Notes: generated by a model not told the origin, from the sequence alone. A stretch of 32,000 nt of DNA from Candidatus Pelagibacter ubique HTCC1062 (GCF_000012345.1 NC_007205.1:900001-932000); one strand, 5' to 3'; positions 12,001-22,650 are shown, counted from the stretch's first letter. Translations and numbers: made by a program.

Positions 12001-15000
12001 ATTAAAAGTTGGTGCTGATGGTACTTACACTTACGTTGCAGATCAAAGTGCAGCTGATGATTTAGATGCTTCAGATACTGCAACAGATAGTTTCACTTAT
12101 ACAGTTTCAGACGGAACAGCTACTGACACTGCAACATTAATCTTTACAGTGACAGGAATTAACGATGCTCCTGTAGCAGTTAACGATAGCGATGTAGTTA
12201 ATGAGGACGCAACAGTAACACAAACTTCAGGCTCAAGTTTATTAATGGCAGATGATAGTGATGCTGATGATGATGATAGTTTTACTGTTACACAAATTGC
12301 ACTAACAGGTGGATCAAACAGTTCAGTTGCAAGCTCAAGTTCTTACAATAGTAATTTTACTTCAATTACTGGAACTTATGGAACATTAAAAGTTGGTGCT
12401 GATGGTACTTACACTTACGTTGCAGATCAAAGTGCAGCTGATGATTTAGATGCTTCAGATACTGCAACAGATAGTTTCACTTATACAGTTTCAGACGGAA
12501 CAGCTACGGATACAGCTACATTAATCTTTACAGTGACAGGTATCAATGATGCTCCCGTTGCAGTCAACGATACTGATGCATTAAATGAAGATGCCACAGT
12601 AACCAGAAGTTCAGGCTCAAGTTTATTAATGGCAGATGATAGTGATGCTGATGATGATGATGCATTTACAGTAACTCAAATTGCAGTAACAGGTGGATCA
12701 AACAGTTCAGTTGCAAGCTCAAGTTCTTATAATTCAAGTGGGACTCAAGTTACAGGTACATACGGTACACTTACTGTTGGTGCTGATGGTACTTATACAT
12801 ATGTAGCCGATCAAAGTGCAGCTGATGATTTAGATGCCTCAGATTCTGTAACAGATAGTTTCACTTACACAATTTCAGATGGTGATACTACTGACACTGC
12901 AACATTAATCTTTACAGTAACCGGAATTAATGATGTGCCAACTGCATCTGATAATGCAGTTACTACAAACGAAGATACCCCTTATGTATTTTCAGCATCA
13001 GATTTTGGATACACAGATGCAGATGATGATGATGCATTAGTAAGTGTAAAAATTACAACTTTAGAAGATGCTGGTGCATTACAATATTATAATGGTAGCG
13101 CTTGGGTAGATGTAACTTTAAATCAGGTGATAACAGCAACAGACATTGCTGCTAATAAATTAAGATTAAATCCTACTGCAGATGAGAATGGATCTCCTTA
13201 CACTACTTTTAATTTTACAGTAAATGATGGGGATGCAAGTAGTTCAACACCTAATACTATTACGGTAAATGTAACAGCAGTTAATGATACTCCAACAGCT
13301 ACTGATGATACAGCTAGTGTTAATGAAGATGCTACTACAACCATTTCATCTGCATCAAGTGGAGTAATAGATGACAATGATACAGATCCAGATTCATCAG
13401 ATACTTTAACTTTAACTAACGTTGCTCATACAAATGGAAACACAGAAAGCGTTACATCGAGCACCACTTATTTAAATGGTCAATCAATTACTGGAACTTA
13501 TGGTGCTTTAACAGTGGGTGCTGATGGAACATATACATATGTAGCAGATCAAAGTGCTGCTGATGATTTAGATGCTTCAGATACTGCAACAGATGTCTTT
13601 ACCTATACACTATCAGATGGAACAGCAACCGATACTGCAACAATTACAATTACTATTACTGGTGTTAACGATGCTCCCGTTGCAGTCAATGATACTGATG
13701 CTGTTAACGAAGATGCAACAGTTACCAGAACTTCAGGTGATAATTTATTAATGGCAGATGATAGTGATGCTGATGATGATGATAGTTTTACCGTAACTCA
13801 AATTGCAGTAACAGGAGCTTCTAATTCTTCAGTTGCAAGCTCAAGTTCTTATAATAGCAATTTTACTTCAATTACTGGAACTTATGGAACATTAAAAGTT
13901 GGTGCTGATGGAACATACACTTACGTTGCAGATCAAAGTGCTGCTGATGATTTAGATGCTTCAGATACTGCAACAGATAGTTTCACTTATACAGTTTCAG
14001 ATGGAACAGCGACAGACACTGCAACATTAATCTTTACAGTGACAGGAATTAATGATGCTCCAGTTGCGGATAATGAAACAAATTCAGTAAATGAAGATGC
14101 AACACTTACAGTCACAGATGGAACTTCAGATGTTTTACATGGAGATACGGATGCAGATGACAGCGCATCTCTAACAGTTTCAGCAATTAGAACTGGAGCG
14201 GAAGGCGGAAGTGGAACTGCAGGCTCAATTGGTTCTGGTTTAACTGGTACTTATGGAACTTTAACTTTAGCAAGTGATGGAACATATACATATGTAGCCG
14301 ATCAAAGTGCTTCAGATGATTTAGACGCTTCAGACACTGCAACAGATGTATTTACCTATACAGTTTCAGATGGAACCGCAACGGATACAGCAACAATTAC
14401 AATTACTATTACTGGTGTTAACGATGCTCCAGTTGCAGTCAATGATACTGATGCTGTTAACGAAGATGCGACAGTTACAAGAAGTTCAGGATCAAGTTTA
14501 TTAATGGATGATGATAGTGATGCTGATGATGATGATGCATTTACAGTTACACAAATAGCAGTAACAGGTAGCTCCAATAATGCAGTTACTGCAAGCAGTA
14601 CTTATAATTCTGGTTCACCAGAAACGGTAACAGGAACTTATGGTACACTTACTGTTGGAGCTGATGGTACTTATACATATGTAGCTGATCAAAATGCTGC
14701 TGATGATTTAGATGCTTCAGACACTGCAACAGATAGTTTCACTTATACAATATCGGATGGAACAGCAACAGACACTGCAACATTAATCTTTACAGTAACT
14801 GGTGTTAATGATGTACCAGAAGCTGCAGATAAAACTGTAACTACAAATGAGGATACAGCTTATGTATTTTCAGCATCAGATTTTGGCTACACAGATGCAG
14901 ATGACGATGATGTGTTAGTAAGTGTAAAAATTACAACATTAGAAAGTGCTGGTGCATTACAATATTATAATGGTAGCGCTTGGGTAGATGTAACCTTAAA

Positions 15001-17707
15001 TCAAGTAATAACTGCAACCGATATCTCAAATAATTATTTAAGATTAAATCCTACTGAAAATGAAACAGGCTCACCCTATACAACAATTGGTTTTTCTGTA
15101 AATGATGGAGATGCGGACAGTTCATCTTCGTATACAATGACCGTTAATGTAATCAATACAAATGATGCTCCAGTAGCTGACAACGAAATTAATTCAGTGA
15201 ATGAAGATGCAACGGTCACAGTCACCGATGGAACTTCAGATGTTTTACATGGAGATACGGATGCTGATAGTGACACTTTAACAGTAACTCAAATTGCAGT
15301 AACAGGTGGATCCAATAGTTCAGTTGCTGGAAGTAGTACTTATAACAGCAATTTTACCTCAGTTACTGGAACTTATGGAACATTAAAAATAGGAGCTAAC
15401 GGAACATACACTTACGTTGCAGATCAATCAGCGTCAGACGATTTAGATGCCTCAGATACTGCAACAGATAGTTTCACTTACACAGTTTCAGATAGTAATG
15501 CGACAGACACTGCAACATTAATCTTTACAGTAACTGGTGTTAATGATGTGCCAACAGCATCAAACAATGCAGTTTCAACAGAAGAGGATACACCATATGT
15601 ATTTTCAACATCTGATTTTGGCTACACAGATGCAGATGATGACGATGCATTAGTAAGTGTAAAAATTACAACATTAGAAGACGCTGGTGCGTTGCAGTAT
15701 TACAATGGATCAAACTGGGTAGATGTAACCTTAAATCAAGTAATAACTGCAACAGATATCTCAAATAGTTATTTAAGATTAAATCCTACTGCAGATGAAA
15801 ATGGATCTCCTTATACAACAATTGGTTTCTCTGTAAATGATGGCGATGCAGATAGTGCTTCAAGTTACACTATGACAATTAACGTAACCGCTATAAATGA
15901 TAATCCAGTTGCTGATAATGAAACGAATACCGCAACAGAAGGCACTACTACAACAGTCACAGACGGGACTTCAGATATTCTCTATGGCGACACAGATACA
16001 GAGGGAGATACATTAGAAATATCAGGCATAAGAACAGGAACAGAGTCTGGCTCTGGAACATTTGGAGCAATAGCTACACCTTTAACTGGTACTTATGGAT
16101 CTTTAACAATTAATTCAGATGGAACATATAGTTATACGCCTAATGATGTTTTAGGTAGTGGAGAAACTGGAATAGATTATTTTACATATACAGTTTCAGA
16201 CGGTAATGGTGGAACAGATACAGGACAACTTACTATAACGGTTACAGGTGCTAATGATGCCCCAGTTGGTGTTAATGATAGTAATACAATTGATATAGCA
16301 GCAACTTCAACTTTAACAGTCACAAATGACTCTGAAAAAGATGTGTTAACTAACGATACTGATCCAGACTCAAATGATACATCAATAGTAACCGAGATAA
16401 GAACAGGATCAACTGAAGGCTCAGGTACTGCTGGAACATTAGGGGAGGCATTAATTGGAACTTATGGTTCTTTGATAATGAACTCAAATGGTAGTTACAC
16501 ATATATAGTTAATGAAGGTTTAAAAGATACATTGGATCCAGGTGAAATAGTTTATGAATATTTTAATTATACAGTTAGAGATGGTAGTGGTGTTACGGAT
16601 ACAAGTTCAATTGTATTAAAATTACAAAATGGTGGTGGTGTTGTTAAAGAAATTAGAGAAAAGAAAGCTGAAAGAATTATTATAAATCAAGCTAGAATGG
16701 AAGCAAGAGTTCAAGTTGAAAATACTTTCACAGAACTAAATCAATCAACAGAATTTGATTTAAATAATTTTGAATTTGAACAAACTGCAAGAAAAACAGA
16801 TTATTCCCAAGGTCTTAAATTAGTTGATTTAGTTGCCGAAACAGACTCTCTTCAAATTTCTGAAGGAGAACTTTCAAACCTTAAAGTTAAAGACAAACAA
16901 GAAGGTTTAAAATTGAAATTTGGTGTCATGAATGAAGCCGACAATGAGATTGTTAAATTTGATGGAAAAATGAGTGATGGTTCTGCATTACCTGAGTGGA
17001 TTAAAATTAATCCTAAAACAGGTCAAACAACCACAAATATTCCAGAAGGTGTAGATAAAGTTGAAATTATGATTATTGCAACGGATAAAAACAATGAAAC
17101 TCGAGAAATTGCAGTTGAGATTGATCCTGAAAAAATAAAACAAGATAGAAAAATTATCAAACAAGCAAAAAGAACAAATTCTTCAATTACTGTTAATGAA
17201 GATGGTACGGTTAATATTGTAAAACAAAATGAAGATGGATTAGTTGAAAGATCATTTAACAAAACATTAAATTTTAACAATCCAGCAGATATCAATGAAA
17301 TTATTGAAACGTTTAAACCAGAAACAATTTTTCAACTTAAACCTTTAAATATTGGAAATGATTTAATTATAGATTTACCCAATGAGCTAAAAGGTAATTT
17401 TAATAATACTAAACTTGTTCTTAAAGATGGAACCGAAGTACCTGACTGGCTTGAGTATGATCCTGTAACGGGTCAAATTATTGCAGAAAATCCACCTGAA
17501 GATGTTTCTCAATTAGAATTAAAACTTATTATTGAGCAAGATGGAAAAATTATTGTAAAAGATTTAGAAGTTGATTTACAAGAGCAAAATGTATCCCAAA
17601 ATTTTGATGGGGGTGAAAATAATAGATTTGTTACTTTAAGCGACCAATTAGATAAAGAATTTAATGATTGGGAAGATTATGGTAATGACCTTATTAATAG
17701 ACTATAA
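2..17707 (+). CDS. Giant acidic repeat protein, a candidate VCBS-type / bacterial cadherin-like surface adhesin. It is 5'-truncated by the window edge, with at least 5,901 codons in the window.
   Basis: The frame of the 452..17707 ORF stays open back to nt 2: nt 2-451 translate as ...TSFDFTVNDGDADSASANTITVNVTAVNDAPVADNETNSVNEDATLTVTDG..., the same repeat units seen downstream. The GTG at 452 is therefore internal. Stop is TAA at 17705-17707. The recurring unit ...VTGTYGTLxVGADGTYTYVADQSAADDLDASDTATDSFTYTVSDGTATDTATLIFTVTGINDAPVA matches the VCBS repeat consensus (TIGR01965 type) with cadherin-like DxNDxAP linkers. Differences between copies are mostly synonymous (GGT/GGA, AAT/AAC, ATC/ATT), which argues for a translated gene under purifying selection. 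Confidence 0.93.
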   Translation, partial: TSFDFTVNDGDADSASANTITVNVTAVNDAPVADNETNSVNEDATLTVTDGTSDVLHGDTDTENDALTVTQIAVTGASASSVAGSSTYNSNGTSKTGTYGTLVIGADGTYTYTADQSAADDLDAGDTATDSFTYTVSDGTATDTATITITVTGINDVPEAADKTVTTNEDTAYVFSASDFGYTDADDDDALVSVKITGLESAGALQYNNGSAWVDVTENQVITATDIGNNKLRFNPAANENGSSYTSFDFTVNDGDADSASANTITVNVTAVNDAPTARGDTGIVNEDVTLTVSNSSNATTSVTAASFVRSKSLGDAGYQSQETKFSPDGTKMFVLDTYQNTNEIHQYTLTTAFDISSASFDGADETFDLSNENSSSSNFTFNNDGTKFYSAYSGRLYEYDVSTAYDISTSSYNNNFFDLILEYPNTRNMGSGVNVAFNSDGTKLFALDAQQREVHEYSLSTAFDVTSASRTNNYVSVGTQEASPYGFAFSNDGKKMFISGLGKDVNEYTLSTGFDLSSTFEFVGSFDVSSKDWYPLGITFNNDGTKMFVTGSQQDKLFEYSLTTPFSLIDVSGEHSGDVINTSSTDNYDTDPEGDALTVTTYSHTSATDQDGGSISSTSSTGTAGTNNVTGYYGTLDLEGNGSYTYTADLTVTQALDSGDTVTDIFTYTVDDGNGGTDTVTITITVIGMNDAPVAQNDVGVIVEDGTLTVSNGANANVSGSYDATGEHSGDVIDTSSSSHTDSDADASASLTVSAIRTGSSEGSGTAGSIGSALTGTYGQLTIAADGSYSYVANQDAAVGDSVTESFNYTLSDGTATDIGVITITILGVNDAGFIKEGGTLTVANSAAANSGASTGNHTGDITDNGSNITSITATTAGGNAQTTFSSNSETVTGEYGTLTINSDGSYSYVANSNISGLDAGDANIKDVFTYIVSDGSTTSTATLTMNIIASQDLTARDDNGTVNEDATLEVDDGDNLTTVAPASYDDSDSFTIAGSDSNPVTTQSTFNDLLFNPDGTKMYTLGSASGLSGRSLFQYTLSIPFDVSTASVSSNDNADVGGSWTTDNEAMRFNNDGTKLFVLFDSPNQNTSSYMYQYTLSTPYDITSTVTAGNSLRLGNQYKNYRTFLFNDDGSEMFISEVSGIYKYTLSTSFDTSTASKTSSYLSASVTGMQYNNDGTKLFTVYQTTTIGSTAKISQWSLSTAYDLMTASSNSTYFDTGEATGSLGNGVPTQFITFNNDGSKFFSFNGSSDPAKIKEWNLASPFNVVNVSGEHSGDVINTSSTANYDTDPDSDTLTVTAIRTGSSEGSGTVGSVGSALTGTYGQLTIAANGSYTYVANQDAADALDPGDVVTDTFNYTVSDGQGETDIAVLTITVNGINDTPVADAETGSVDTTQTLTVTDGTSDLLHGDTDADASASLSVSSIVATTASGSATAVNPGTAYNSGYTSVTGSKGTLRVGADGTYQYIAGSSTGTDVFTYTLSDGTATHTATLTITVNSSNNAPSAVADTDSVNEDATVTQSSGSGLLNADDSDADGDSLTVTQIKKDGGSNSSVSGGSSYNSSGTSVTGTYGTLTVGADGTYTYVADQAAADALDASDTVTDVFTYTISDGNGGTDTANLTITVTGVNDAPSATNDTGSVNEDATLTVSTASSGVTQDNDTDADADDSASSLVITQIKKDGGSNSSVSGGTNHSNGTSVTGTYGTLVIGANGTYTYVADQDAADALDASDTVTDVFTYTVSDGNGGTDTANITITVTGVNDDPIGVNDTDSVNEDATITESSGSELLVADDTDADDSSSLTVTQIKVTGGSNSSVAGSSTYNSNFTTVTGTYGTLKVGADGSYTYVADQAAADALDVGDNVTDSFTYTVSDGTATSTATLIITVTGINDVPVAVNDTDAVNEDATITESSGSELLVADDTDADDSSSLTVTQIKVTGGSNSSVAGSSTYNSNFTTVTGTYGTLKVGADGSYTYVADQAAADALDASDTVTDSFTYTVSDNTWFDTATLIITVTGINDVPEAADKTVTTNEDTPYVFSANDFGYTDADDDDALVSVKITGLEDAGALQYNNGSAWVDVTENQVITATDIGNNKLRFNPAANENGSSYTSFDFTVNDGDADSASANTITVNVTAVNDAPVADDETGAVNEDATLTVTDGTSDVLHGDTDADSDTLTVTTYSHTSATNQSGGNASSANGNSGTAGTNAVVGYYGTLTLAADGTYTYAADQSAADDLDASDTATDVFTYTLSDGTATDTATITITVTGINDAPAAVNDTDAVNEDATVTRTSGDNLLMADDSDADDDDSFTVTQIAVTGGSNNAVTASSTYNSGSPETVTGTYGTLTVGANGTYTYVADQSASDDLDASDTATDSFTYTISDGTTTDTATLIFTVTGINDVPTAADKTVTTNEDTAYVFSASDFGYTDADDDDALVSVKITGLEDAGALQYNNGSAWVDVTENQVITATDIAANKLRFNPAANENGSSYTSFDFTVNDGDADSASANTITVNVTAVNDAPVADDETNSVNEDATLTVTDGSSDVLHGDTDVDSGDTLTVTTYSHTSATNQSGGNASSANGNSGTAGTNAVVGYYGTLTLAADGTYTYAADQSAADDLDASDTATDVFTYTLSDGTATDTATITITVTGINDAPVAVNDTDAVNEDATVTRTSGDNLLMADDSDADDDDSFTVTQIAVTGASNSSVASSSSYNSNFTSITGTYGTLKVGADGTYTYVADQSAADDLDLNDTATDSFTYTISDGDTTDTATLIFTVTGINDAPVAVDDTDAVNEDATVTRSSGSSLLMDDDSDADDDDAFTVTQIAVTGSSNNAVTASSTYNSGSPETVTGTYGTLTVGADGTYTYVADQNAADDLDASDTATDSFTYTISDGTATDTATLIFTVTGVNDVPEAADKTVTTNEDTAYVFSASDFGYTDADDDDVLVSVKITTLESAGALQYYNGSAWVDVTLNQVITATDIAANKLRLNPATNENGSPYTTFNFTVNDGDADSATPNTITVNVTNVNNAPVADNETNSVNEDATVTVTDGTSDVLHGDTDADSGDTLTVTQIAVTGGSNSSVAGSSAYNSNFTSVTGTYGTLKIGANGTYTYVADQSASDDLDASDTATDSFTYTVSDGTATDTATLIFTVTGINDAPVAVNDTDAVNEDATVTRTSGDNLLMADDSDADDDDSFTVTQIAVTGSSDNAVTANSTYNSGSPETVTGTYGTLTVGANGTYTYVADQNAADDLDLNDQVTDSFTYTISDGTATDTATLIFTVTGINDAPVAQNDVGVIVEDGTLTVSNGANANLSGSYDATGEHSGDIIDTSSSSHTDSDADDSASLTVTAIRVGSSEGSGTAGSIGSALTGTYGQLTIAADGSYSYVANQDEADALDAGDSVTDSFNYTLSDGTATDIGVITITILGANDAPVANNDTGSVNEDATLTVSSASSGVTQDNDTDVDGDDTVSSLTVTQIAVTGSSNSSVTSSTTYSNGTSVTGTYGTLVIGANGTYTYVADQSAADDLDLNDTATDSFTYTVSDGTTTDTATLIFTVTGINDAPVAVNDTDALNEDATVTRSSGDNLLMADDSDADDDDSFTVTQIAVTGGSNSSVNSSTTYSNGTSVTGTYGTLVVGADGSYTYEADQSAADDLDLNDQVTDSFTYTISDGTATDTATLIFTVTGINDAPVAVNDTDAVNEDATVTRSSGSSLLMADDSDADDDDAFTVTQIAVTGGSNSSVAGSSTYNNNFTSVTGTYGTLKVGADGTYTYVADQSAADDLDASDTATDSFTYTVSDGTATDTATLIFTVTGVNDVPTASDKTISTAEDTPYVFSTSDFGYTDADDDDALVSVKITTLEDAGALQYYNGSAWVDVTLNQVITATDIAANKLRLNPTADENGSPYTTIGFSVNDGDADSATPNTITVNVTAVNDAPVADNETNSVNEDATVTVTDGTSDVLHGDTDVDSGDTLTVTQIAVTGGSNSSVASSSSYNSNFTSITGTYGTLKVGADGTYTYVADQSAADDLDASDTATDSFTYTVSDGTATDTATLIFTVTGINDAPVAVNDSDVVNEDATVTQTSGSSLLMADDSDADDDDSFTVTQIALTGGSNSSVASSSSYNSNFTSITGTYGTLKVGADGTYTYVADQSAADDLDASDTATDSFTYTVSDGTATDTATLIFTVTGINDAPVAVNDTDALNEDATVTRSSGSSLLMADDSDADDDDAFTVTQIAVTGGSNSSVASSSSYNSSGTQVTGTYGTLTVGADGTYTYVADQSAADDLDASDSVTDSFTYTISDGDTTDTATLIFTVTGINDVPTASDNAVTTNEDTPYVFSASDFGYTDADDDDALVSVKITTLEDAGALQYYNGSAWVDVTLNQVITATDIAANKLRLNPTADENGSPYTTFNFTVNDGDASSSTPNTITVNVTAVNDTPTATDDTASVNEDATTTISSASSGVIDDNDTDPDSSDTLTLTNVAHTNGNTESVTSSTTYLNGQSITGTYGALTVGADGTYTYVADQSAADDLDASDTATDVFTYTLSDGTATDTATITITITGVNDAPVAVNDTDAVNEDATVTRTSGDNLLMADDSDADDDDSFTVTQIAVTGASNSSVASSSSYNSNFTSITGTYGTLKVGADGTYTYVADQSAADDLDASDTATDSFTYTVSDGTATDTATLIFTVTGINDAPVADNETNSVNEDATLTVTDGTSDVLHGDTDADDSASLTVSAIRTGAEGGSGTAGSIGSGLTGTYGTLTLASDGTYTYVADQSASDDLDASDTATDVFTYTVSDGTATDTATITITITGVNDAPVAVNDTDAVNEDATVTRSSGSSLLMDDDSDADDDDAFTVTQIAVTGSSNNAVTASSTYNSGSPETVTGTYGTLTVGADGTYTYVADQNAADDLDASDTATDSFTYTISDGTATDTATLIFTVTGVNDVPEAADKTVTTNEDTAYVFSASDFGYTDADDDDVLVSVKITTLESAGALQYYNGSAWVDVTLNQVITATDISNNYLRLNPTENETGSPYTTIGFSVNDGDADSSSSYTMTVNVINTNDAPVADNEINSVNEDATVTVTDGTSDVLHGDTDADSDTLTVTQIAVTGGSNSSVAGSSTYNSNFTSVTGTYGTLKIGANGTYTYVADQSASDDLDASDTATDSFTYTVSDSNATDTATLIFTVTGVNDVPTASNNAVSTEEDTPYVFSTSDFGYTDADDDDALVSVKITTLEDAGALQYYNGSNWVDVTLNQVITATDISNSYLRLNPTADENGSPYTTIGFSVNDGDADSASSYTMTINVTAINDNPVADNETNTATEGTTTTVTDGTSDILYGDTDTEGDTLEISGIRTGTESGSGTFGAIATPLTGTYGSLTINSDGTYSYTPNDVLGSGETGIDYFTYTVSDGNGGTDTGQLTITVTGANDAPVGVNDSNTIDIAATSTLTVTNDSEKDVLTNDTDPDSNDTSIVTEIRTGSTEGSGTAGTLGEALIGTYGSLIMNSNGSYTYIVNEGLKDTLDPGEIVYEYFNYTVRDGSGVTDTSSIVLKLQNGGGVVKEIREKKAERIIINQARMEARVQVENTFTELNQSTEFDLNNFEFEQTARKTDYSQGLKLVDLVAETDSLQISEGELSNLKVKDKQEGLKLKFGVMNEADNEIVKFDGKMSDGSALPEWIKINPKTGQTTTNIPEGVDKVEIMIIATDKNNETREIAVEIDPEKIKQDRKIIKQAKRTNSSITVNEDGTVNIVKQNEDGLVERSFNKTLNFNNPADINEIIETFKPETIFQLKPLNIGNDLIIDLPNELKGNFNNTKLVLKDGTEVPDWLEYDPVTGQIIAENPPEDVSQLELKLIIEQDGKIIVKDLEVDLQEQNVSQNFDGGENNRFVTLSDQLDKEFNDWEDYGNDLINRL
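920..1715 (+). other. Five-bladed beta-propeller-like module 1, nested inside a VCBS-like module of the giant protein
   Basis: Five ~50-aa repeats share the motif F(S/N)xDG(T/K)K(M/L)F...(H/Y/N/F)(Q/E)Y(T/S/D)L(S/T)T(A/G/P)FD(I/V/L)S(S/T). The cores are FSPDGTKMFVLD..IHQYTLTTAFDISSAS, FNNDGTKFYSAY..LYEYDVSTAYDISTSS, FNSDGTKLFALD..VHEYSLSTAFDVTSAS, FSNDGKKMFISG..VNEYTLSTGFDLSST and FNNDGTKMFVTG..LFEYSLTTPFSLIDVS. Boundaries are approximate. Confidence 0.6.
2990..3810 (+). other. Five-bladed beta-propeller-like module 2, nested inside a VCBS-like module of the giant protein
   Basis: A second set of five blades is present: FNPDGTKMYTLG..LFQYTLSIPFDVSTAS, FNNDGTKLFVLF..MYQYTLSTPYDITST, FNDDGSEMFISE..IYKYTLSTSFDTSTAS, YNNDGTKLFTVY..ISQWSLSTAYDLMTAS and FNNDGSKFFSFN..IKEWNLASPFNVVNVS. 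As in module 1, it is followed by SGEHSGDVINTSST.NYDTDP. Boundaries are approximate. Confidence 0.6.
5321..5898 (+). repeat. Adjacent tandem duplication with a 384-nt period
   Basis: 5321-5514 equals 5705-5898 (194 bp identical by eye). Both encode EDATITESSGSELLVADDTDADDSSSLTVTQIKVTGGSNSSVAGSSTYNSNFTTVTGTYGTLKVG. Confidence 0.85.
6512..6792 (+). repeat. 281-bp direct repeat, copy A (identical by eye to 7652..7932), part of a ~1.14-kb super-repeat
   Basis: Both copies encode ...DTLTVTTYSHTSATNQSGGNASSANGNSGTAGTNAVVGYYGTLTLAADGTYTYAADQSAADDLDASDTATDVFTYTLSDGTATDTATITITVTG. The offset is 1,140 nt. The flanking segments 6841-6914 and 7981-8054 are also identical. Confidence 0.85.
7652..7932 (+). 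repeat. 281-bp direct repeat, copy B (partner of 6512..6792)
   Basis: See copy A. Confidence 0.85.
7973..8169 (+). repeat. 197-bp dispersed intragenic repeat (partner 13703..13899, offset 5,730 nt)
   Basis: The stretch gttaacgaagatgcaacagttaccagaacttcaggtgataatttattaatggcagatgatagtgatgctgatgatgatgatagttttaccgtaactcaaattgcagtaacaggagcttctaattcttcagttgcaagc... is identical in both places by eye. Confidence 0.8.
8343..8913 (+). repeat. Long intragenic direct repeat, copy A (~571 bp, identical by eye to 14442..15012)
   Basis: I aligned 8343-8913 against 14442-15012 base by base and found no mismatch. The offset is 6,099 nt (2,033 codons, in frame). Identity breaks at 8914 (a) versus 15013 (t). 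Confidence 0.85.
11919..12507 (+). repeat. Adjacent tandem duplication with a 384-nt period
   Basis: 11919-12123 equals 12303-12507 (205 bp identical by eye). Both encode TGGSNSSVASSSSYNSNFTSITGTYGTLKVGADGTYTYVADQSAADDLDASDTATDSFTYTVSDGTAT. Confidence 0.85.
14442..15012 (+). repeat. Long intragenic direct repeat, copy B (partner of 8343..8913)
   Basis: Same comparison as for copy A. The repeat spans the end of one VCBS module, a whole VCBS module, and the first ~2/3 of a cadherin-like module. Confidence 0.85.
16630..17707 (+). other. Non-repetitive C-terminal region of the giant protein (~359 aa): a charged helical segment plus two dystroglycan-type cadherin-like / He_PIG-like motifs
   Basis: The repeat array ends at ...VLKLQNGGGVVKEIREKKAERIIINQARMEARVQ. 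Two related segments follow: DGSALPEWIKINPKTGQTTTNIPEGVDKVEIMIIATD (about nt 16975-17090) and DGTEVPDWLEYDPVTGQIIAENPPEDVSQLELKLIIEQD (about nt 17425-17545). Both resemble the LP.WL.(F/I).P.TG.(L/I).G.P signature of CADG/He_PIG Ig-like domains. I saw no GGxGxDxUx RTX nonapeptides. Confidence 0.55.
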
Positions 17708-17721
17708 AATAACTTAGCCTC

Positions 17722-18435
17722 ATGAAACAATTACTATTTATATTATTTATTTATTTATCATTTTTAAACCCTGTTCATTCTGAAGAAAGGGAAGCTCGAG
17801 GTTTAGTGAGCGCAACGGAGAAAGTTTCCATTTCCAGTGAAATTGCTGCAAGAGTTCAAAGTATTAATTTTTTATTAGGAGATGCTTTTAAAGAAGGGGA
17901 TGTGCTGATTAGTTTTGATTGTGAAATTTATAAAGCACAAAAAGATGTAATTAAAGCCGAACATGAGAGTGCAAGAATACAATTAGAAAATGATAAAGAG
18001 TTATTAGAACTAAGATCAATTGGTAAACTCCAATACCAATTAACAGTTTCAAATTATGAAAAGGCTAAAGCAGAATTGAGTATTGCAACTTTAAATGTGG
18101 ATCGATGTGAAATCATTGCTCCTTATGATGGAAAAGTGATGGATGTTTATACAACTATTTTTACCAGTATAGAACAAAGACAACCCTTAATGGACATTGT
18201 TGGGGATGGATTATTAGAAGCTGAAATTGTTGCTCCAAGTAATTGGCTTAAATGGTTAAAAAAAGGACATAACGTAAAAATCATTATTGATGAAACTGGA
18301 GAAACGTTAGATGCAACCGTTATTAGTTTAGGAGCTACAGTGGATGCAATTAGTCAAACAATAGAATTAAAAGCACAGTTTAATGAAAAATACGATTCAT
18401 TAATACCTGGAATGAGTGGGATCGTTAAATTTTGA
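17722..18435 (+). CDS. Secreted membrane-fusion (periplasmic adaptor) protein of the HlyD / RND-MFP family, 237 aa
   Basis: ATG lies 14 nt after the giant-gene stop. There is a Sec-type signal peptide, MKQLLFILFIYLSFLNPVHS|EE, with no lipobox Cys. The protein has split lipoyl-like halves typical of MFPs (ISSEIAARVQSINFLLGDAFKEGDVLISFD ... CEIIAPYDGKVMDVY) flanking a short coiled-coil hairpin (YKAQKDVIKAEHESARIQLENDKELLE...YEKAKAELSIATLNV), followed by a beta-barrel-like tail. Confidence 0.8.
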   Translation: MKQLLFILFIYLSFLNPVHSEEREARGLVSATEKVSISSEIAARVQSINFLLGDAFKEGDVLISFDCEIYKAQKDVIKAEHESARIQLENDKELLELRSIGKLQYQLTVSNYEKAKAELSIATLNVDRCEIIAPYDGKVMDVYTTIFTSIEQRQPLMDIVGDGLLEAEIVAPSNWLKWLKKGHNVKIIIDETGETLDATVISLGATVDAISQTIELKAQFNEKYDSLIPGMSGIVKF

Positions 18436-19766
18436 GTGAAGATAAAAACATAAAAGTTGCTCGGTTATTTGGTTTAGAAAAAAAAGCAAGAGAAGCAAGA
18501 TCTCAAGACGAACTACATTTTGTAATCGCAAATGAGACAAGACAAATTATCGATTATATCAGTGCGTTTTTATTATTAAAAACACCAGCGGATAAATTTA
18601 ATATTAAAGCAACCTCTGATTTAGCTACAGTTGATAGAACGTCACCTTTACTTACTTTTATAGAAAACTTTGTGAACAACGATAAATCGTTAAGTGATAA
18701 AGAAATTCAAAATTTAGAATTAGACAAAATTGCTAAAAATATTAATTCTGAGAAACCAAAAAATTTACCCGAAAACATTTTATTTATTCCAATTATTTCA
18801 CCTCAAAAAGGCCTACAAGGTTATTTATTATTAGTAAGAAGTGAAAAATTTTCTGAAAACGAAATTGAACTTGCCGGACATTTGTCTTCAACTTATGGTC
18901 ATGCTTTTAATTCGTTCTTAAAAGATTTTTCAATTAAAAATCATTATAAAAAATATTTAACTGGAAAAAAATCATGGAAAATTTATGCAGCTATTTTTAT
19001 AATTTTAATTTTACCTATTCGAATAACTAGTACGGCTCCAGTTGAGGTTATAGCAAAAAATCCAAGCTTAGTTACTTCACCATTTGATGGGGTGGTTAAA
19101 AATATTGTAGCAAGTAATAACGATAAAATTAAGCAAGGTGATTTATTGGTTTTATTAGAAGATATCGAACTTAAGAATAATTTAAATATTACAAACCAAT
19201 CCCTTCAAGTAGCTCAAAAAGAACTTCTTCGAAGCAGACAATCATCCTTTACGAATAATGAGGAAAAAGCTCGATTAGCAGAATTAGTGGCACAAGTAGA
19301 ATTAAAAAAAGTAGAAGTAGCATCAGCACAAGAAAAGCTAAAAAATACAAAATTATTTGCAAAACAAAAAGGAATTGCAATTGTAGATCAAAAAAATGAT
19401 TGGCAAGGACGACCCGTTGCAGTGGGTGAAAAAATTATGACTGTTGCAAATCCTGATGAAGTTGAGTTTTTGATATGGTTGCCGGTTAAAGACTCGTTAG
19501 TTATTAAAGAAAATTCTAAAGTTAAAGTGTTTTTAGACATCAATCCAATTAGCTCGTTAAAAGGAAAACTTTTAAGATCTTCTTACGAACCTTCTTTGTC
19601 TCCTGAAGAAATATTATCTTATAAATTAGGAGCTAGTTTTGAGGGAAAAAAACCTCCAAGAATAGGATTGAGAGGAACGGCTAAAGTTTATGGTTCAAGA
19701 GTTTTTCTATTCTATTATGTTCTTAGAAAACCAATTACTTTTGTAAGACAATTAATAGGAATATGA
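18432..19766 (+). CDS. Membrane-anchored MFP/HlyD-family protein with an N-terminal cytoplasmic GAF-like domain, 444 aa
   Basis: A TTG start overlaps the upstream TGA (TTGA), and there is no in-frame ATG for more than 300 codons. The first ~170 aa resemble a GAF fold pattern (SQDELHFVIANETRQIIDYISAFLLLK ... LQGYLLLVRSEKFSENEIELAGHLSSTYGHAF). A single TM helix follows (WKIYAAIFIILILPI). The rest has MFP motifs: VTSPFDGVVKNIVASNNDKIKQGDLLVLLED, a coiled coil (NQSLQVAQKELLRSRQ...ELVAQVELKKVEVASAQEKL) and LFAKQKGIAIV. The GAF call is pattern recognition only. Confidence 0.72.
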   Translation: MSEDKNIKVARLFGLEKKAREARSQDELHFVIANETRQIIDYISAFLLLKTPADKFNIKATSDLATVDRTSPLLTFIENFVNNDKSLSDKEIQNLELDKIAKNINSEKPKNLPENILFIPIISPQKGLQGYLLLVRSEKFSENEIELAGHLSSTYGHAFNSFLKDFSIKNHYKKYLTGKKSWKIYAAIFIILILPIRITSTAPVEVIAKNPSLVTSPFDGVVKNIVASNNDKIKQGDLLVLLEDIELKNNLNITNQSLQVAQKELLRSRQSSFTNNEEKARLAELVAQVELKKVEVASAQEKLKNTKLFAKQKGIAIVDQKNDWQGRPVAVGEKIMTVANPDEVEFLIWLPVKDSLVIKENSKVKVFLDINPISSLKGKLLRSSYEPSLSPEEILSYKLGASFEGKKPPRIGLRGTAKVYGSRVFLFYYVLRKPITFVRQLIGI

Positions 19767-21865
19767 TCGTTCCTTATCTAAGACAAGATTTAGAAGTTTT
19801 TCGTGGTAATAGCCGTGAAGATGGTTCGCCCGCATGGCTTTTATATGATGCAATTCGAAATAAATACTTCACACTTGGTTTAACTGCTTTTAAACTTATT
19901 AAAAACTGGAGTGGAGGTGAAGATATTAAAAACTTTGAAAAGAAAATTAATTCATCAGGAATTGAAACCAATGAAGATGAAATAAAAAGTTTTATTAGTT
20001 TTCTTCACCAAAATAATTTAATTGTCCAACCTTCTGGTCAAAACGTTAGCTATTTACTACAACAAAAAAATAGCATGAAGAAGAGCTGGTTATTATATTT
20101 AATACACAGTTATCTATTTTTTAAAATTCCATTATTTAAACCAGACAATTGGCTTTCTAAAACTTTAAAATATGTAAAATATTTTGGTTCAAAACGATTT
20201 AGAAATATTACTTACTTCTTTGGTTTTGTTGGTTTATTTTTAGTCGCTCAACAATTTGAAACCTTTAAAAGCACTTTTCTTTATTTCTTTTCTTTTCAAG
20301 GGTTAATGCTTTATTTCTTAACTTTAGTTTTTGTAAAATGTCTTCATGAGTTAGGACATGCTTATATTGCAAAACACTATGGTTGCAGAGTATCTGCGAT
20401 TGGAATAGCTTTTTTAGTTTTTTTTCCATTTTTATATACCGATACAACTGATGCCTGGAGACTTAGAAATCACAAAGAAAGATTATTAATAAACTTTGGT
20501 GGTATACTTACAGAATTACATCTAGCGTTATTTGCAACTTTTATTTGGGGAATTTTACCTGAGGGTGGATTTAAAAGTGCAGCCTTTTTCATTGCAACAA
20601 CATCATGGATTTCATCCTTAACAATTAATGTAAGTCCTTTCATGAGATTTGATGGCTACTATGTTTTTTCCGATTGGTTAAAAGCTGAAAATTTACAACC
20701 TCGTTCATTTGCTCTTGCAAGGTGGAAAATAAGGGAAACTTTATTTGGTCTTAATCATAGTCCTCCAGAAGAAATTAACCCCTCAAGAAGATGGACTTTT
20801 ATCGTTTATGCTTGGGCGACATGGCTGTATCGATTTTTTCTATTTTTAGGTATTGCACTTTTAGTTTATCACCTAGCATTTAAATTTTTAGGAATCATAC
20901 TGTTTGCGGTTGAAATTTATTGGTTCATTATGTTACCGGTAATTCGTGAAGTGAATAATTGGTACAAATTAAAATCTGAAATAAAATTTAACAAACAAAC
21001 CAAAAGAACTTTAATCATTATTACTGCTTTATTAATGGTTTTATTCTTACCCTGGAAGTCATCTTTAAAAATACCTGCAGTATATATTTCTGAGCAGTAT
21101 TTAAAAATTTACGCACCTTATCCTTCAATGATTAAAAGAATATTAGTTGAAAAAGATGATGAAGTTGAAAAAGGACAAAATCTAATTGAACTTTATTCGC
21201 CTGATTTAGAGAATGAAATTATTTCATTAAGAAGAAATATAAAACTAATCAAGACAAAGATTAATCGATTAAGTAATTCAGCAGGAAATATGGATCAATA
21301 CTTAACGTTACAACAAAGATTAATTGCTCTACAAACAGAATTATCTGGTCTTACAAAAGTTCAAAATAAGCTTTTAATTAAAGCACCCATTAAAGGAAAG
21401 ATAAAAGATTTTTATAATTTATCTGAAGATATGTGGGTTAGTAATTTAGATCAACTTTTAGGTATTGTTCAATTCGGTACTGGAAAAGTAAAAGGATTTA
21501 TTAAAGAAGAACAAATAGATCGATTTTTAGAAAAAAACCCAGCTGTCTTTATTCCAAACGATGGAATTCATGATAAAGTTTATTTAGTTTCAAAATCACT
21601 AGATTTATCTGCTGTTAATAATCTTCCTTACATTTCATTAAGCTCAATTCATAATGGTCCAGTTGCTATAAGAAATTTTACAGGAGGAAAATTTCAATAT
21701 CGTCCACAAACAGCACATTATATTGCAGACTTCAAACTTGCGAAACGTAGTAAAATTCAATTCGAATTACCTGGTTATGTTCATATTGAAGGGAGTCGAT
21801 ACAGCCCTTTTACAAAATTGTTTAAAAATATTATTGCTATTCTTGTAAGAGAAAGTGGTTTTTAA
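19763..21865 (+). CDS. Fusion protein: PqqD/RRE-like N-domain, polytopic M50 (site-2 protease family) zinc metalloprotease, and C-terminal MFP/HlyD-like periplasmic domain, 700 aa
   Basis: ATG overlaps the upstream stop (ATGA). The HExxH motif sits in a TM helix (VKCLHELGHAYIAKHYG), and the second S2P motif NxxPxxxxDG is present (INVSPFMRFDGYY). There are about 8-9 hydrophobic helices. The C-terminal ~250 aa have a lipoyl-like/coiled-coil/lipoyl-like MFP layout (IYAPYPSMIKRILVEKDDEVEKGQNLIELYS ... LENEIISLRRNIKLIKTKINRL...LQQRLIALQTELSGL ... LIKAPIKGKIKDF). The N-terminus LRQDLEVFRGNSREDGSPAWLLYDAIRNKYFTLGLTAFKLIKNW...EDEIKSFISFLHQNNLI resembles PqqD-like peptide-binding domains. Confidence 0.85.
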   Translation: MIVPYLRQDLEVFRGNSREDGSPAWLLYDAIRNKYFTLGLTAFKLIKNWSGGEDIKNFEKKINSSGIETNEDEIKSFISFLHQNNLIVQPSGQNVSYLLQQKNSMKKSWLLYLIHSYLFFKIPLFKPDNWLSKTLKYVKYFGSKRFRNITYFFGFVGLFLVAQQFETFKSTFLYFFSFQGLMLYFLTLVFVKCLHELGHAYIAKHYGCRVSAIGIAFLVFFPFLYTDTTDAWRLRNHKERLLINFGGILTELHLALFATFIWGILPEGGFKSAAFFIATTSWISSLTINVSPFMRFDGYYVFSDWLKAENLQPRSFALARWKIRETLFGLNHSPPEEINPSRRWTFIVYAWATWLYRFFLFLGIALLVYHLAFKFLGIILFAVEIYWFIMLPVIREVNNWYKLKSEIKFNKQTKRTLIIITALLMVLFLPWKSSLKIPAVYISEQYLKIYAPYPSMIKRILVEKDDEVEKGQNLIELYSPDLENEIISLRRNIKLIKTKINRLSNSAGNMDQYLTLQQRLIALQTELSGLTKVQNKLLIKAPIKGKIKDFYNLSEDMWVSNLDQLLGIVQFGTGKVKGFIKEEQIDRFLEKNPAVFIPNDGIHDKVYLVSKSLDLSAVNNLPYISLSSIHNGPVAIRNFTGGKFQYRPQTAHYIADFKLAKRSKIQFELPGYVHIEGSRYSPFTKLFKNIIAILVRESGF

Positions 21866-21942
21866 ATATCATTAGTTTATTAAACCTAAAATGGACGTCT
21901 TTTGATATAAAAAGATACATCAAATCAATTATAATTTTAAAA

Positions 21943-22563
21943 ATGAAAGTTATAAATAATAAAAAAGGTTTTACCTTAATTGAATTATTAGTGGTAGTTG
22001 CCATCATTGGTATTTTATCATCTGTCGGGGTTGTTGCTTATAATGGGTATACAGCTGGGGCTAAAGAATCAGCTTGCAAAGGTAATTTTAGAACCATAGT
22101 TAAATCTGTTTATGAAAATATAATGTGGTGTGAGCTTAACCCAACAATTAATTTTTTGTGGAATAATGAACAATCTTGGGAATTTGATTGTGATACTATG
22201 TTCTATAACGGCATGTCAGTTGCGTCTCAGTGGGGGTACACGACAACTGAACAATTAGTCAGTCTTACTGTAAGAGATATTTCTAGTCAAGATAGTCATA
22301 GAAAACCAGACTCAAATATAGGTTCAAGAACAACACTTAAAACGATGACTAATCCCTACACTGGTTCTGGTTCTGTTTCTGGTGGTACTGCAAGGAGGGA
22401 AATTTATGATGGAGATAGATATGATATGAGAGGTAGTGTATCTCTTTTAAAAAGAGATAGTAGTGGAAATGAATTAAGCAATAATTGGCAGCAAGAGGGA
22501 CAACTGTATCTAATAACTAAATGTCGTGATAAAGTGATAGAATACGAATTTGATATCTATTGA
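21943..22563 (+). CDS. Type IV pilin-like protein (prepilin with N-terminal cleavage/methylation motif), 206 aa
   Basis: The class III signal MKVINNKKG|FTLIELLVVVAIIGILSSVGVVAYNGY is present, with G-1, F+1, E+5 and a hydrophobic alpha1-N helix. The variable C-terminal globular part has 4 Cys. Confidence 0.85.
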   Translation: MKVINNKKGFTLIELLVVVAIIGILSSVGVVAYNGYTAGAKESACKGNFRTIVKSVYENIMWCELNPTINFLWNNEQSWEFDCDTMFYNGMSVASQWGYTTTEQLVSLTVRDISSQDSHRKPDSNIGSRTTLKTMTNPYTGSGSVSGGTARREIYDGDRYDMRGSVSLLKRDSSGNELSNNWQQEGQLYLITKCRDKVIEYEFDIY

Positions 22564-22650
22564 AAATTTATATGTTTTCTTAAAATGGATAAATAATTAA
22601 CATAAAATACTTCTTTCCATTTTCATATTTAATGTCTATAAGATACTACC

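Follow-up and report, generated by a model that had tools for sequence, protein, structure and literature searches.

A conserved five-gene module genetically couples an M50 protease and two further membrane-fusion proteins to giant LEPR-XLL proteins

In Candidatus Pelagibacter ubique HTCC1062, three overlapping genes follow directly on a gene for a giant repeat protein. Comparison across genomes shows that they are part of a conserved, genetically coupled set of five, comprising a TolC-family outer-membrane factor (OMF), the proteins we term p1, p2 and p3, and a giant protein with an N-terminal LEPR motif. On the evidence of its sequence, p3 is a member of peptidase family M50 (site-2 protease) with its catalytic residues intact. 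The module is widespread and unstudied, no paper describing these five genes together having been found in the literature, and it possibly represents a novel route for the export or processing of giant proteins.

Architecture of the triad

The sequence analysed, which we refer to as the window, is a stretch of 32,000 nucleotides (NC_007205.1:900001-932000). Direct reading places the start of the three overlapping genes 14 nt 3' of the stop codon of the giant ORF. The assigned features are as follows:

2..17707, + strand: giant substrate gene, 3' part; frame open from window position 2
17705-17707, + strand: TAA stop of the giant frame
17708..17721, + strand: 14-nt spacer from giant stop to p1 start (direct sequence reading)
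17722..18435, + strand: p1, soluble periplasmic membrane-fusion protein (MFP), 237 aa (HlyD_3, HlyD_D23, TIGR01730)
17722-17781, + strand: p1 Sec-type signal peptide, residues 1-20
18432..19766, + strand: p2, GAF-TM-MFP, 444 aa; TTG start within a TTGA overlap
18432-18926, + strand: p2 predicted cytoplasmic GAF-like domain
18981-19037, + strand: p2 TM segment (hydropathy scan)
19038-19763, + strand: p2 periplasmic MFP (HlyD_3, HlyD_D23)
19763..21865, + strand: p3, fusion of RRE(PqqD)-like domain, M50 site-2 protease and MFP, 700 aa; ATGA overlap with p2
19763-20032, + strand: p3 predicted RRE-like domain
about 20144-21052, + strand: p3 polytopic M50 core (Peptidase_M50)
20345..20359, + strand: p3 HELGH zinc-binding/catalytic motif, residues 195-199 (regular expression)
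20627..20656, + strand: p3 second M50 motif, N289-x-x-P292-x-x-x-F296-D297-G298, third zinc ligand region (columns invariant in the alignment)
21053-21862, + strand: p3 periplasmic MFP (HlyD_3, fold match)

An earlier reading made without database searches (hereafter the sequence-only reading) had described three overlapping genes starting 14 bp past the giant stop with no hairpin in between, and its coordinates and junctions are exact. No terminator-like site was detected in positions 17000-23000. The order p1-p2-p3 recurs in dozens of unrelated lineages, and thus the arrangement is not the result of chance. Profile searches of the kind which that reading had called for place the MFP and M50 assignments above the Pfam cutoffs.

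The N-terminus of p1 is a Sec-type signal, MKQLLFILFIYLSFLNPVHS, from which a lipobox Cys is absent. The protein exceeds the cutoffs of HlyD_3 (53 bits), HlyD_D23 (38 bits) and TIGR01730 RND_mfp (103 bits), so that its description as a soluble secreted MFP is borne out. p2 is above cutoff for both HlyD_3 and HlyD_D23, and a hydropathy scan gives a single TM segment at residues 184-202; the C-terminal half of its AF2 model (pLDDT 87) matches MacA by Foldseek (E = 8e-16). The N-terminus of p2 matched nothing in a Pfam scan of the whole protein. Searched alone, this fragment gave GAF_2 at E = 0.08, below cutoff, and homologous N-terminal fragments matched GAF_2 in 7 of 12 cases (best E = 1e-4) and GAF in 6 of 12. 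Comparison with the PDB returned weak matches, nearly all of them to GAF domains, and the predicted succession of secondary-structure elements is consistent with a GAF fold. Of the proposed GAF-MFP assignment of p2, the MFP part holds, and the GAF part is predicted from sub-threshold profile matches and secondary structure.

Peptidase_M50 (PF02163) matches p3 with 36.5 bits against a cutoff of 27.2. In an alignment of 58 p3 homologues, H195, E196 and H199 of the HELGH motif are invariant, as are N289, P292, F296, D297 and G298, and the AF2 model (pLDDT 85) contains the polytopic helices. The C-terminus scores above cutoff with HlyD_3 (24.3 bits, cutoff 22.2) and below it with HlyD_D23 (28.6 bits, cutoff 30), and its fold resembles EmrA, MacA and MexA by Foldseek; for the C-termini of p2 and p3 together, the best matches are MacA, EmrA, MexA and AcrA (E = 1e-12 to 1e-16). 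With both Peptidase_M50 and HlyD_3 above cutoff, the assignment of p3 as an M50 protease fused to an MFP stands.

The N-terminus of p3 is modelled by AF2 (pLDDT ~85) as strands at residues 11-14, 25-29 and 34-38 followed by helices at 40-47, 55-64 and 71-83. PqqD (PF05402) is the sole Pfam family matched repeatedly by p3 N-terminal fragments (3 of 20, best E = 8e-4, sub-threshold), and a profile of the region found no match among PDB sequences. Distant p3 homologues are named PqqD family by PGAP. The AF2 arrangement, the fragment matches and the PGAP names together support the hint of PqqD in the sequence-only reading, and point to an RRE-like domain. JGI names p3 a 'putative peptide zinc metalloprotease' (YydH-like). 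The NCBIfam model for daptide RRE-S2P leader peptidases, NF041824, matches residues 31-392 with 131.7 bits, and the RRE-like region shares homology with that peptidase. As this is below the equivalog cutoff of 300, and no daptide biosynthetic genes lie nearby, we rejected an identification of p3 as the daptide biosynthesis intramembrane metalloprotease.

The module and its giant partner across genomes

The p3 family comprises 2,901 clusters at 50% identity (E <= 1e-30), the best 150 of which are all about 700 aa in length, and its members are encoded in at least 596 species. The module is found in Pseudomonadota, Nitrospirota and Campylobacterota. The sequence-only reading had expected such clusters in proteobacteria and cyanobacteria; this is right for Pseudomonadota, and in cyanobacteria the sole match is a partial M50. 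Among 82 p3-anchored loci, 81 have p2 next to p3, 69 have p1 and 51 a TolC-family OMF, while 59 contain a giant ORF or an N-terminus with LEPR. Where at least 5 kb was visible on both flanks, the giant gene was found in 32 of 34 loci. A deep sister branch (~23% identity) likewise adjoins giants, of 8.8-12.9 thousand aa, and PGAP gives one of these the name LEPR-XLL. The suggested link of the triad to the giant gene is thereby upheld.

The OMF emerged from clustering of the locus ORFs, in which the recurrent neighbour family F2 proved to be Pfam OEP. It is a dedicated TolC-family, OEP-domain lipoprotein and the fifth conserved member of the module. In SAR11 relatives it is divergent and lies upstream of the giant gene, that is, outside the window. 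Elsewhere the giant gene is often within the operon, in the order OMF-p1-giant-p2-p3. PGAP-annotated loci with all five genes are known from Kosakonia, from Azospirillum brasilense Sp7 and from plasmids of E. coli. One such plasmid, of type IncF and 69 kb, carries the module between IS elements and has no annotated ABC exporter.

Coupling was also evident in the reverse direction. System genes were present in 49 of 75 metagenome loci anchored on LEPR, the remaining 26 being cut off, and in all 12 of those with at least 3 kb visible downstream. Four of five DUF4347 proteins without LEPR had no system genes, and the leaderless DUF4347 proteins of Phaeobacter and Dolichospermum have no system. 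There are also LEPR/DUF4347 genes that stand alone, as orphans, on other replicons.

The giant ORF in the window encodes at least 5,901 aa with 0 Cys, 15.5% D+E and 2.4% K+R, matching its earlier description as Cys-free, hyper-acidic and longer than 5,900 aa. Its repeats belong to Cadherin_4, Big_9 and Cadherin_5 (Pfam), and the visible 5,901 aa contain neither RTX nonapeptides (GGxGxD repeats) nor a TM-like segment. The N-terminus of this giant, like the OMF gene, falls beyond the left edge of the window, and the leader is known from relatives. SAR11 relatives with complete giant genes begin ALEPRxMLDGAA, followed by DUF4347. An LEPR-type N-terminal motif is present in 33 giants, six from SAR11 and 27 from Gammaproteobacteria, Alphaproteobacteria, Nitrospira and Arcobacter, with the consensus ALEPRxMFDGAAxATA (NCBIfam LEPR-XLL), then an acidic linker, then DUF4347. 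NF012209 (LEPR-XLL) is above cutoff in two of four giants tested, and DUF4347, which has a conserved SHG...YGC pattern and weak Peptidase_C80 matches, was found in five of five (E = 1e-36 to 1e-55). Thus it is the N-terminal LEPR-XLL leader, with DUF4347 behind it, that the machine tracks, and not the VCBS/cadherin repeats to which the sequence-only reading had tied it.

At the other end of the giants, 24 of 36 proteins have a hydrophobic-x-x-Q-[LV] signature, with a helix after it, at a distance of 23-34 residues from the terminus, compared with 3.7% of internal windows; the motif FVTLSDQL...DYGNDLINRL of the window's giant fits this signature. Nitrospira giants have TM-like hydrophobic segments at the end. 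A published Vibrio LEPR-XLL protein carries C-terminal RTX and serralysin domains (PMC10868602). Both that protein and the conserved C-terminal motif fit classical, C-terminus-first type 1 secretion, and count against the model that we set out below.

No conserved ABC, RND or MFS pump was found near the module, and no ABC gene lies beside the triad in the window. Across 162 loci of very different lineages, there is no exporter-type ABC protein within about 10 kb. ABC-ATPase motifs (Walker A + LSGGQ) occur in only 8 of the 82 p3-anchored loci and in 3 of 80 reverse-test loci, never adjacent, and the ORFs that contain them are of 255-359 aa, except for one of 466 aa cut by a contig end. A regular pairing with a conventional ABC or RND pump, which the sequence-only reading held would tell against a dedicated machine, is therefore not seen. 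The same reading had stated that neither pump nor OMF is encoded: the absence of a pump is upheld, and the absence of an OMF is true of the window only. Considered as a type 1 secretion system, the loci have a TolC-family OMF in the related cases (51 of 82; absent from the window) and no HlyB-type ABC component, the gene for which may be distant. To our knowledge, every known case of protein export through TolC depends on an ABC transporter, which might here be encoded at another locus.

Export, tethering and other readings of the module

We infer that the machine acts in the export, processing, anchoring or release of the giant, and that the giant would pass through the OMF and be cleaved by p3. 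It is on balance probable, if only just, that p1-p2-p3 make up those parts of a machine for giant, acidic, repeat-rich LEPR-XLL surface proteins that lie in the inner membrane and the periplasm. We lean to a similar, slight degree towards a five-component envelope machine, TolC-linked and without an ABC transporter, in which the giant's LEPR leader is bound and cut by the RRE-site-2 protease during export or release.

In such a machine, the predicted cytoplasmic RRE/PqqD-like domain of p3 would bind the LEPR leader, in the way that RiPP leaders are bound by MpaP and other fusions of an RRE with a site-2 protease, and the M50 core would then make its cut in this leader, close to the face of the membrane or at it. 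A periplasmic tunnel would be built jointly by p1 (soluble MFP), p2 (GAF-anchored MFP) and the MFP domain of p3, and would dock on the dedicated TolC-like lipoprotein, so that unfolded cargo would pass or be held across both membranes. The GAF domain of p2 would be a cytoplasmic gate sensing ligand or substrate, and what it reads may be a small-molecule signal or the hydrophobic-x-x-Q-L motif at the C-terminus of the cargo. Because the module contains no ATPase, directionality would need a source other than ATP, for which candidates are the proton-motive force and the extracellular folding, driven by Ca2+, of the acidic cadherin/Ig repeats. We put forward more tentatively, and consider less than probable, the stronger proposal of a new diderm secretion pathway. 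Here a hetero-oligomer of three MFPs around the RRE-guided site-2 protease would replace the ABC transporter, recognise and cleave the LEPR leader and, needing no ATP, thread proteins 2,000-13,000 residues long through a private TolC-like channel, driven by proton-motive force, extracellular Ca2+-dependent folding, or both.

Alternatively, the giants could be type 1 secretion substrates of the classical kind, exported C-terminus first by an HlyB-type ABC transporter whose gene is unlinked, with the triad and OMF serving as adaptors and channel and the M50 protease only trimming or releasing the LEPR end in the manner of LapG/LapD. The C-terminal signature, so much more frequent at the end of the giants than internally, speaks for this explanation, as does the resemblance of the cargo to T1SS adhesins in its acidic cadherin/Ig repeats and its lack of Cys in the visible part; so too does the LEPR-XLL protein with a C-terminal RTX domain, and T1SS genes can be unlinked from those of their substrates, for example in Legionella (PMC7730722). 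However, we consider it rather unlikely, given that exporter-type ABC proteins are missing within about 10 kb in so many lineages, that three MFP-containing proteins and a private OMF are kept without the pump they normally serve, that on E. coli plasmids all five genes travel together as one cassette flanked by IS elements, and that the visible giant is without RTX nonapeptides.

An anchoring or regulated-release device in place of a conduit, with the N-terminus of the giant tethered at the inner membrane or the TolC-like pore until intramembrane cleavage sheds the protein on a signal read by GAF, would make sense of the predicted sensor-type domain of p2 and of the terminal TM-like segments in Nitrospira giants, which suggest membrane tethering. 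Further points in its favour are the G-A-A within the N-terminal motif, which may resemble the di-alanine site of LapA cut by LapG, and the SHG...YGC pattern and Peptidase_C80 matches of DUF4347, which hint at more processing steps. Yet it leaves unexplained how a protein of 2,000-13,000 aa without a Sec-type signal crosses the inner membrane, and it largely overlaps our main model, cleavage at the LEPR end being common to both; as a separate explanation it appears improbable. We regard as very improbable indeed that the triad is an ordinary efflux and processing system for small molecules or RiPP-like peptides, with adjacency to the giant coincidental or reflecting mere co-regulation in a variable genomic island. 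The YydH-like JGI name, a RiPP leader peptidase as the closest curated family to p3, and MFP structures nearest to the drug-pump adaptors MacA, EmrA and MexA speak for such a system. Against this, adjacency to LEPR giants extends across phyla, holds in both test directions and in two deep branches, and the giant gene is often inside the operon; moreover, no family of RiPP tailoring enzymes recurs among the neighbour clusters of the 82 loci, a search that covered ORFs longer than short precursors.

Relation to known systems and significance

The proposed machine shares with the T1SS of giant adhesins (LapA-LapBCE with LapG/LapD; SiiE-SiiCDF; HlyA-HlyBD-TolC) a dedicated TolC-family OMF and HlyD-type MFPs beside a giant, acidic Ig/cadherin-repeat protein without a Sec signal, as well as a logic of N-terminal processing or retention and a conserved C-terminal region. 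It differs in having no ABC transporter in or near the module, three MFP-containing proteins rather than one, an M50 intramembrane protease as its polytopic inner-membrane component, and a cargo marked by the LEPR-XLL leader rather than RTX repeats. LapG is a periplasmic cysteine protease, whereas the protease here is integral to the machine. With PCATs for double-glycine-leader bacteriocins (e.g. CvaAB-TolC) it has in common a leader peptidase fused to the export apparatus, a cargo whose N-terminal leader ends in small residues, and a Gram-negative route completed by MFP and TolC. The peptidase of a PCAT, however, is a C39 cysteine protease fused to an ABC transporter and acting on a peptide, whereas here it would be an RRE-guided M50 metalloprotease (the RRE being predicted), fused to an MFP, with a cargo of thousands of residues.

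RRE-site-2-protease enzymes of RiPP pathways, such as daptide MpaP and epipeptide EpeP/YydH, remove leader peptides, and resemble p3 in placing an N-terminal PqqD/RRE-like domain, predicted in p3, before a polytopic M50 core. Unlike them, p3 is below the NF041824 equivalog cutoff, has a C-terminal periplasmic MFP domain, and is found in diderms, alongside giant proteins and a private OMF. Leader removal by this enzyme class depends on the RRE (bioRxiv 10.1101/2023.03.08.531785), and EpeP has been proposed to combine cleavage with export (PMC10885120). Finally, MacAB-TolC and EmrAB-TolC are the efflux pumps whose adaptors, with MexA and AcrA, superpose best on the periplasmic domains of p2 and p3; p1 passes the RND_mfp threshold, and the OMF partner is conserved in both cases. 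In contrast to these pumps, the module has no ABC, MFS or RND component, its adaptors are fused to protease and predicted GAF modules, and it is coupled to a protein cargo.

If our inference is right, the making of one class of giant surface proteins is governed by a gene cassette that is very common. TolC-type channels would then be fed by an intramembrane protease in place of an energised pump, LEPR-XLL and DUF4347 would gain a function, and leader recognition of the RiPP style would be tied to the export of megadalton proteins. SAR11 is the most abundant marine bacterium, and the role of its hypervariable giant gene, whether in adhesion or in shielding from phage and grazers, would become testable through a defined machinery. 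Carriers of the cassette include, besides SAR11, Nitrospira nitrifiers and plant-associated Azospirillum, Pseudomonas and rhizobia. In E. coli and Citrobacter it is also present, on plasmid islands flanked by IS elements, and the E. coli version offers an immediate genetic model.

The giant gene and the three-gene run

On re-reading the sequence, the coordinates and junctions that the sequence-only reading had given for the three genes downstream of the giant gene proved exact. The features, in window positions, are:

2-17707, + strand: giant reading frame, 3' part; stop-free from position 2, stop codon at 17705-17707
17722-18435, + strand: p1, a soluble membrane-fusion protein (MFP), 237 aa
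18432-19766, + strand: p2, a protein with a putative GAF domain, a TM helix and an MFP domain, 444 aa; TTG start within a TTGA overlap
19763-21865, + strand: p3, an RRE(PqqD)-like domain with an M50 site-2 protease (S2P) and an MFP, 700 aa; ATGA overlap with p2

The giant ORF was called at 452-17707 with a GTG start, yet the same frame runs without a stop back to position 2, and thus the gene clearly extends past the left window edge. Its product (at least 5,901 residues within the window) contains no Cys, 15.5% Asp+Glu and 2.4% Lys+Arg, and its repeats are of the Cadherin_4, Big_9 and Cadherin_5 families. A 14-nt spacer separates the giant stop from the p1 start, stop and start codons overlap along p1, p2 and p3, and no terminator-like structure was found in window 17000-23000, in agreement with the earlier remark that no hairpin lies between the giant gene and the triad. 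Proteins nearly identical to p3 come from Candidatus Pelagibacter isolates.

GC content ranges from 22 to 39% across the window, and is clearly higher in the giant gene (0.33-0.39) than in the rest (0.22-0.34). The giant gene also contains long near-identical internal blocks, for example repeated VNDVPEAADKTVTTNEDTAYVFSASDFGYTDADDDD units. Gene content downstream of the triad varies among SAR11 strains, which is consistent with a hypervariable island.

Domain architecture of p1, p2 and p3

An MFP domain had been proposed for all three products and an M50 protease for p3, and both proposals are upheld. p1 has a signal peptide of Sec type that lacks a lipobox, and scores above threshold for three MFP models (HlyD_3, HlyD_D23 and TIGR01730). 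p2 has a single transmembrane helix at residues 184-202 and an MFP at its C-terminus, the best structural match to its AF2 model (pLDDT 87) being MacA (Foldseek, E = 8e-16). The last 270 residues of p3 also adopt an MFP fold in the AF2 model, matching EmrA, MacA and MexA in Foldseek with E about 1e-12. p3 passes the Peptidase_M50 threshold, and its HELGH at 195-199 and its N289..P292..F296-D297-G298 motif are invariant across 58 homologues.

Full-length models of p2 and p3 returned MFP structures alone in Foldseek, so that their N-terminal domains could not be classified by this route; the GAF (p2) and RRE (p3; a RiPP-leader-binding-type domain) assignments are sub-threshold profile matches. 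As for the suggestion that the cytoplasmic N-terminus of p2 (170 residues) is a sensor-like GAF domain, the window protein itself falls below the GAF threshold, but 7 of 12 N-terminal fragments of its homologues match GAF_2 (best E = 1e-4), and the weak PDB matches of this region are almost all GAF domains. In the first ~90 residues of p3, three strands are predicted ahead of three helices. Among Pfam families, only PqqD is matched repeatedly by p3 N-terminal fragments (3/20, best E = 8e-4), and more distant p3 homologues are named "PqqD family protein" by PGAP. A profile of this region gave no match to PDB sequences, and phmmer of p3 against the PDB returned only lipoyl-domain matches and one weak match to MjS2P. 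NCBIfam release 20 holds no dedicated models for p1-p3; residues 31-392 of p3 match its daptide RRE-S2P leader peptidase model with 131 bits, under the equivalog cutoff. Daptide leaders are removed by an enzyme of this class, in which an RRE is joined to a site-2 protease (bioRxiv 10.1101/2023.03.08.531785), and the related enzyme EpeP is thought both to cleave and to export its own peptide (PMC10885120).

The module and its putative giant cargo

The p3 family comprises 2,901 clusters at 50% identity (E <= 1e-30), the best 150 of which have a uniform length of about 700 aa. When one genome per species was scanned, at least 596 species had relatives, among them Pelagibacterales, many Gamma- and Alphaproteobacteria, Nitrospira, Zetaproteobacteria and Arcobacter. 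ORF calling was simple and produced artefactual long antisense ORFs in several GC-rich loci, hence family-derived HMMs were run against six-frame translations of 82 p3-anchored loci; the loci compared (80 + 80) are the best-scoring matches rather than a random sample. p2 adjoins p3 in 81 of the 82 loci, and 69 contain p1. A fourth conserved gene, present in 51/82, encodes a TolC-family outer-membrane factor (OMF; Pfam OEP) with a lipoprotein signal. It lies directly upstream of p1 in most lineages, and divergent and upstream of the giant gene in seven SAR11 loci; for this window, the position corresponding to the SAR11 arrangement is past the left edge.

The earlier remark that neither a pump nor an OMF is encoded here is, for the OMF, true of the window only. 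ORFs with both Walker A and LSGGQ motifs occur at 8/82 p3-anchored and 3/80 cargo-anchored loci, and at none of these 82 + 80 loci do they adjoin the module; a pump may still lie elsewhere in the genome. Most are of 255-359 aa, and one of 466 aa is cut by a contig end. Clustering of neighbouring ORFs revealed no further family conserved across loci.

In RefSeq annotation, giant, TolC-family, RND-adaptor, HlyD and HlyD genes stand consecutively, in that order, in Azospirillum brasilense Sp7, on a Kosakonia plasmid and on E. coli IncHI1B/IncF plasmids. The 69-kb E. coli IncF plasmid carries them between ISKpn26 and IS1B, with no ABC exporter annotated on it. The plasmid-borne E. coli p3 copies were detected by tblastn; they are too divergent as DNA for blastn, which matched nothing in complete E. 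coli genomes when queried with Kosakonia p3.

A giant gene, taken as an uninterrupted frame of 1,000 codons or more or as the recognisable start of a giant protein in the available flanks, lies near the triad at 59 of 82 loci, and at 32 of the 34 where each flank extends for at least 5 kb, which bears out the linkage proposed from the sequence. Loci lacking one mostly run into a contig end. The position of the giant gene relative to the triad varies (upstream, downstream or divergent), and many Gammaproteobacteria as well as Arcobacter have it inside the operon (OMF-p1-giant-p2-p3). Some loci have two or three giants.

Thirty-three complete giants, drawn from all of these lineages, can be aligned at the N-terminus on ALEPRxMFDGAAxATA; beyond it come an acidic linker, which varies, and a domain that is conserved. 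The leader is LEPR-XLL (NCBIfam NF012209; above cutoff in 2/4 tested) and the domain is DUF4347 (Pfam; E = 1e-36 to 1e-55 in 5/5 tested). The E. coli plasmid giant has the same type of start, FALESRQLFDGAA. Scanning metagenome contigs in reverse, with the cargo N-terminus as anchor, OMF, p1, p2 or p3 genes were found in the available DNA of 49/75 LEPR anchors, and in 12/12 of those with at least 3 kb visible past the giant gene; contig ends cut off the remaining 26. Four of five DUF4347 proteins without the LEPR motif lack system genes, which are likewise absent from the neighbourhood of the Phaeobacter and Dolichospermum plasmid proteins that have the domain at their very start. Thus, the machine tracks the leader, and not the repeats or DUF4347 alone: the proposed tie to giant proteins stands, but the tie to a repeat type does not. 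Orphan LEPR giants lie on other replicons of system-bearing genomes.

A sister branch at about 23% identity (loci L087, L089 and L090) has the same RRE-M50-MFP plan and also stands beside three giants, all on plasmids:

Methylosinus: LamG protein, 8,847 aa
Pseudosulfitobacter: PGAP-named LEPR-XLL protein, 12,919 aa
Mesorhizobium: Ig-like protein, 10,519 aa

The coupling of machine and giant is therefore old. The sister loci also have MFPs, with TolC in Methylosinus and DUF3467 or SapC in individual loci; those of Methylosinus and Pseudosulfitobacter add a prepilin-peptidase-like protein (about 640-675 aa).

This prepilin-peptidase-like gene may be set against a type IV pilin-like gene 77 nt past the window's p3 (21943-22563, + strand, 206 aa; N_methyl E = 2e-9; sequence KKGFTLIELLVVVAIIG). 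The latter probably does not belong to the module, as pilin-like genes occur only here and, about 6 kb off, at the SAR11 locus L006. Small phage-tail-collar-type proteins, annotated 'tail fiber protein', lie between or after module genes (L085:16128-18235, L054, and Pseudomonas L064, L066, L067, L071 and L074), with three copies in Kosakonia, and Pseudomonas loci have sulfotransferase-like and GNAT-like genes close by. Each is limited to a few related genomes (Pseudomonas, Enterobacteriaceae), and we reject them as core parts; they could serve as additional cargo or as modifiers.

Several features of individual components deserve mention. SAR11 OMFs are 740-840 aa (L013:267-2798 (-), L006:132-2363 (-)) and extend past the OEP domains with a cadherin-like segment (LPSWITFLPSQ) and a long coiled-coil tail rich in Lys and Glu, unusual among TolC-family proteins. 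In the DUF4347 of the giants of L010, L018, L034, L066, L068 and L088 (first ~300 aa), the residues SHG...G and YGC are invariant (H110, G111 and C153 in A7, our alignment of giant N-termini), and a tail, ADVAAS.D.TG...GGDW.LE, is conserved. With weak Peptidase_C80 matches in 2/5 tested (E = 0.03-0.05), the domain could be a cysteine protease of clan-CD type that cleaves itself.

Proposed export route and the classical alternative

Direct observation gives a component list with its architectures, an intact protease site, coupling to LEPR giants in both directions and no linked pump. Judging from the genes, the cytoplasmic RRE-like domain of p3 would bind the LEPR leader and the M50 core would cleave it, the three MFP domains would bridge to the private OMF, and the GAF domain of p2 might gate or sense. 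Transport could be powered by the proton-motive force, by extracellular folding, or by the two together.

The main competing explanation is classical type 1 secretion (T1SS) through an unlinked ABC transporter, with p3 acting only as a release or processing protease. Such a route would suit the conservation of a C-terminal motif among the giants: hydrophobic-x-x-Q-[LV], 23-34 residues before the end, occurs in 24/36 giant C-termini, the window's included, compared with 3.7% of internal windows. A LEPR-XLL protein with an RTX C-terminus is also on record (PMC10868602). However, no ORF with ABC-ATPase motifs adjoins the module at any of the 82 + 80 loci. We rate the module as a variant form of TolC-dependent protein export; that it represents a categorically new, ATP-independent secretion route seems to us less likely than not.

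The module's parts are of known kinds. Full-text searches of the literature gave no description of the module; LEPR-XLL and DUF4347 are named there in passing only, and matches to M50 with HlyD were spurious (residue numbers, journal codes). The DDxP giant-protein paper assumes classical T1SS and leaves the module unmentioned. A graspetide survey followed as a lead had no bearing, and the cyanobacterial bacteriocin clusters rely on C39-ABC transporters instead of M50. As far as we could find, the pump-less assembly of RRE-S2P-MFP, two further MFPs, a private OMF and a LEPR giant is undescribed.

Two further observations concern the ends of the giants and a plasmid neighbour. The Nitrospira LEPR giants (L023 and L034, Nitrospirales) lack hydrophobic-x-x-Q-L; they end in a hydrophobic, TM-like segment, or two, with basic residues behind, suggesting another mode of C-terminal anchoring. 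In E. coli NZ_CP081687, a diguanylate cyclase gene (L094:8006-9388) shares a small plasmid with the five-gene cassette, which could matter should the GAF domain or the release step answer cyclic nucleotides.
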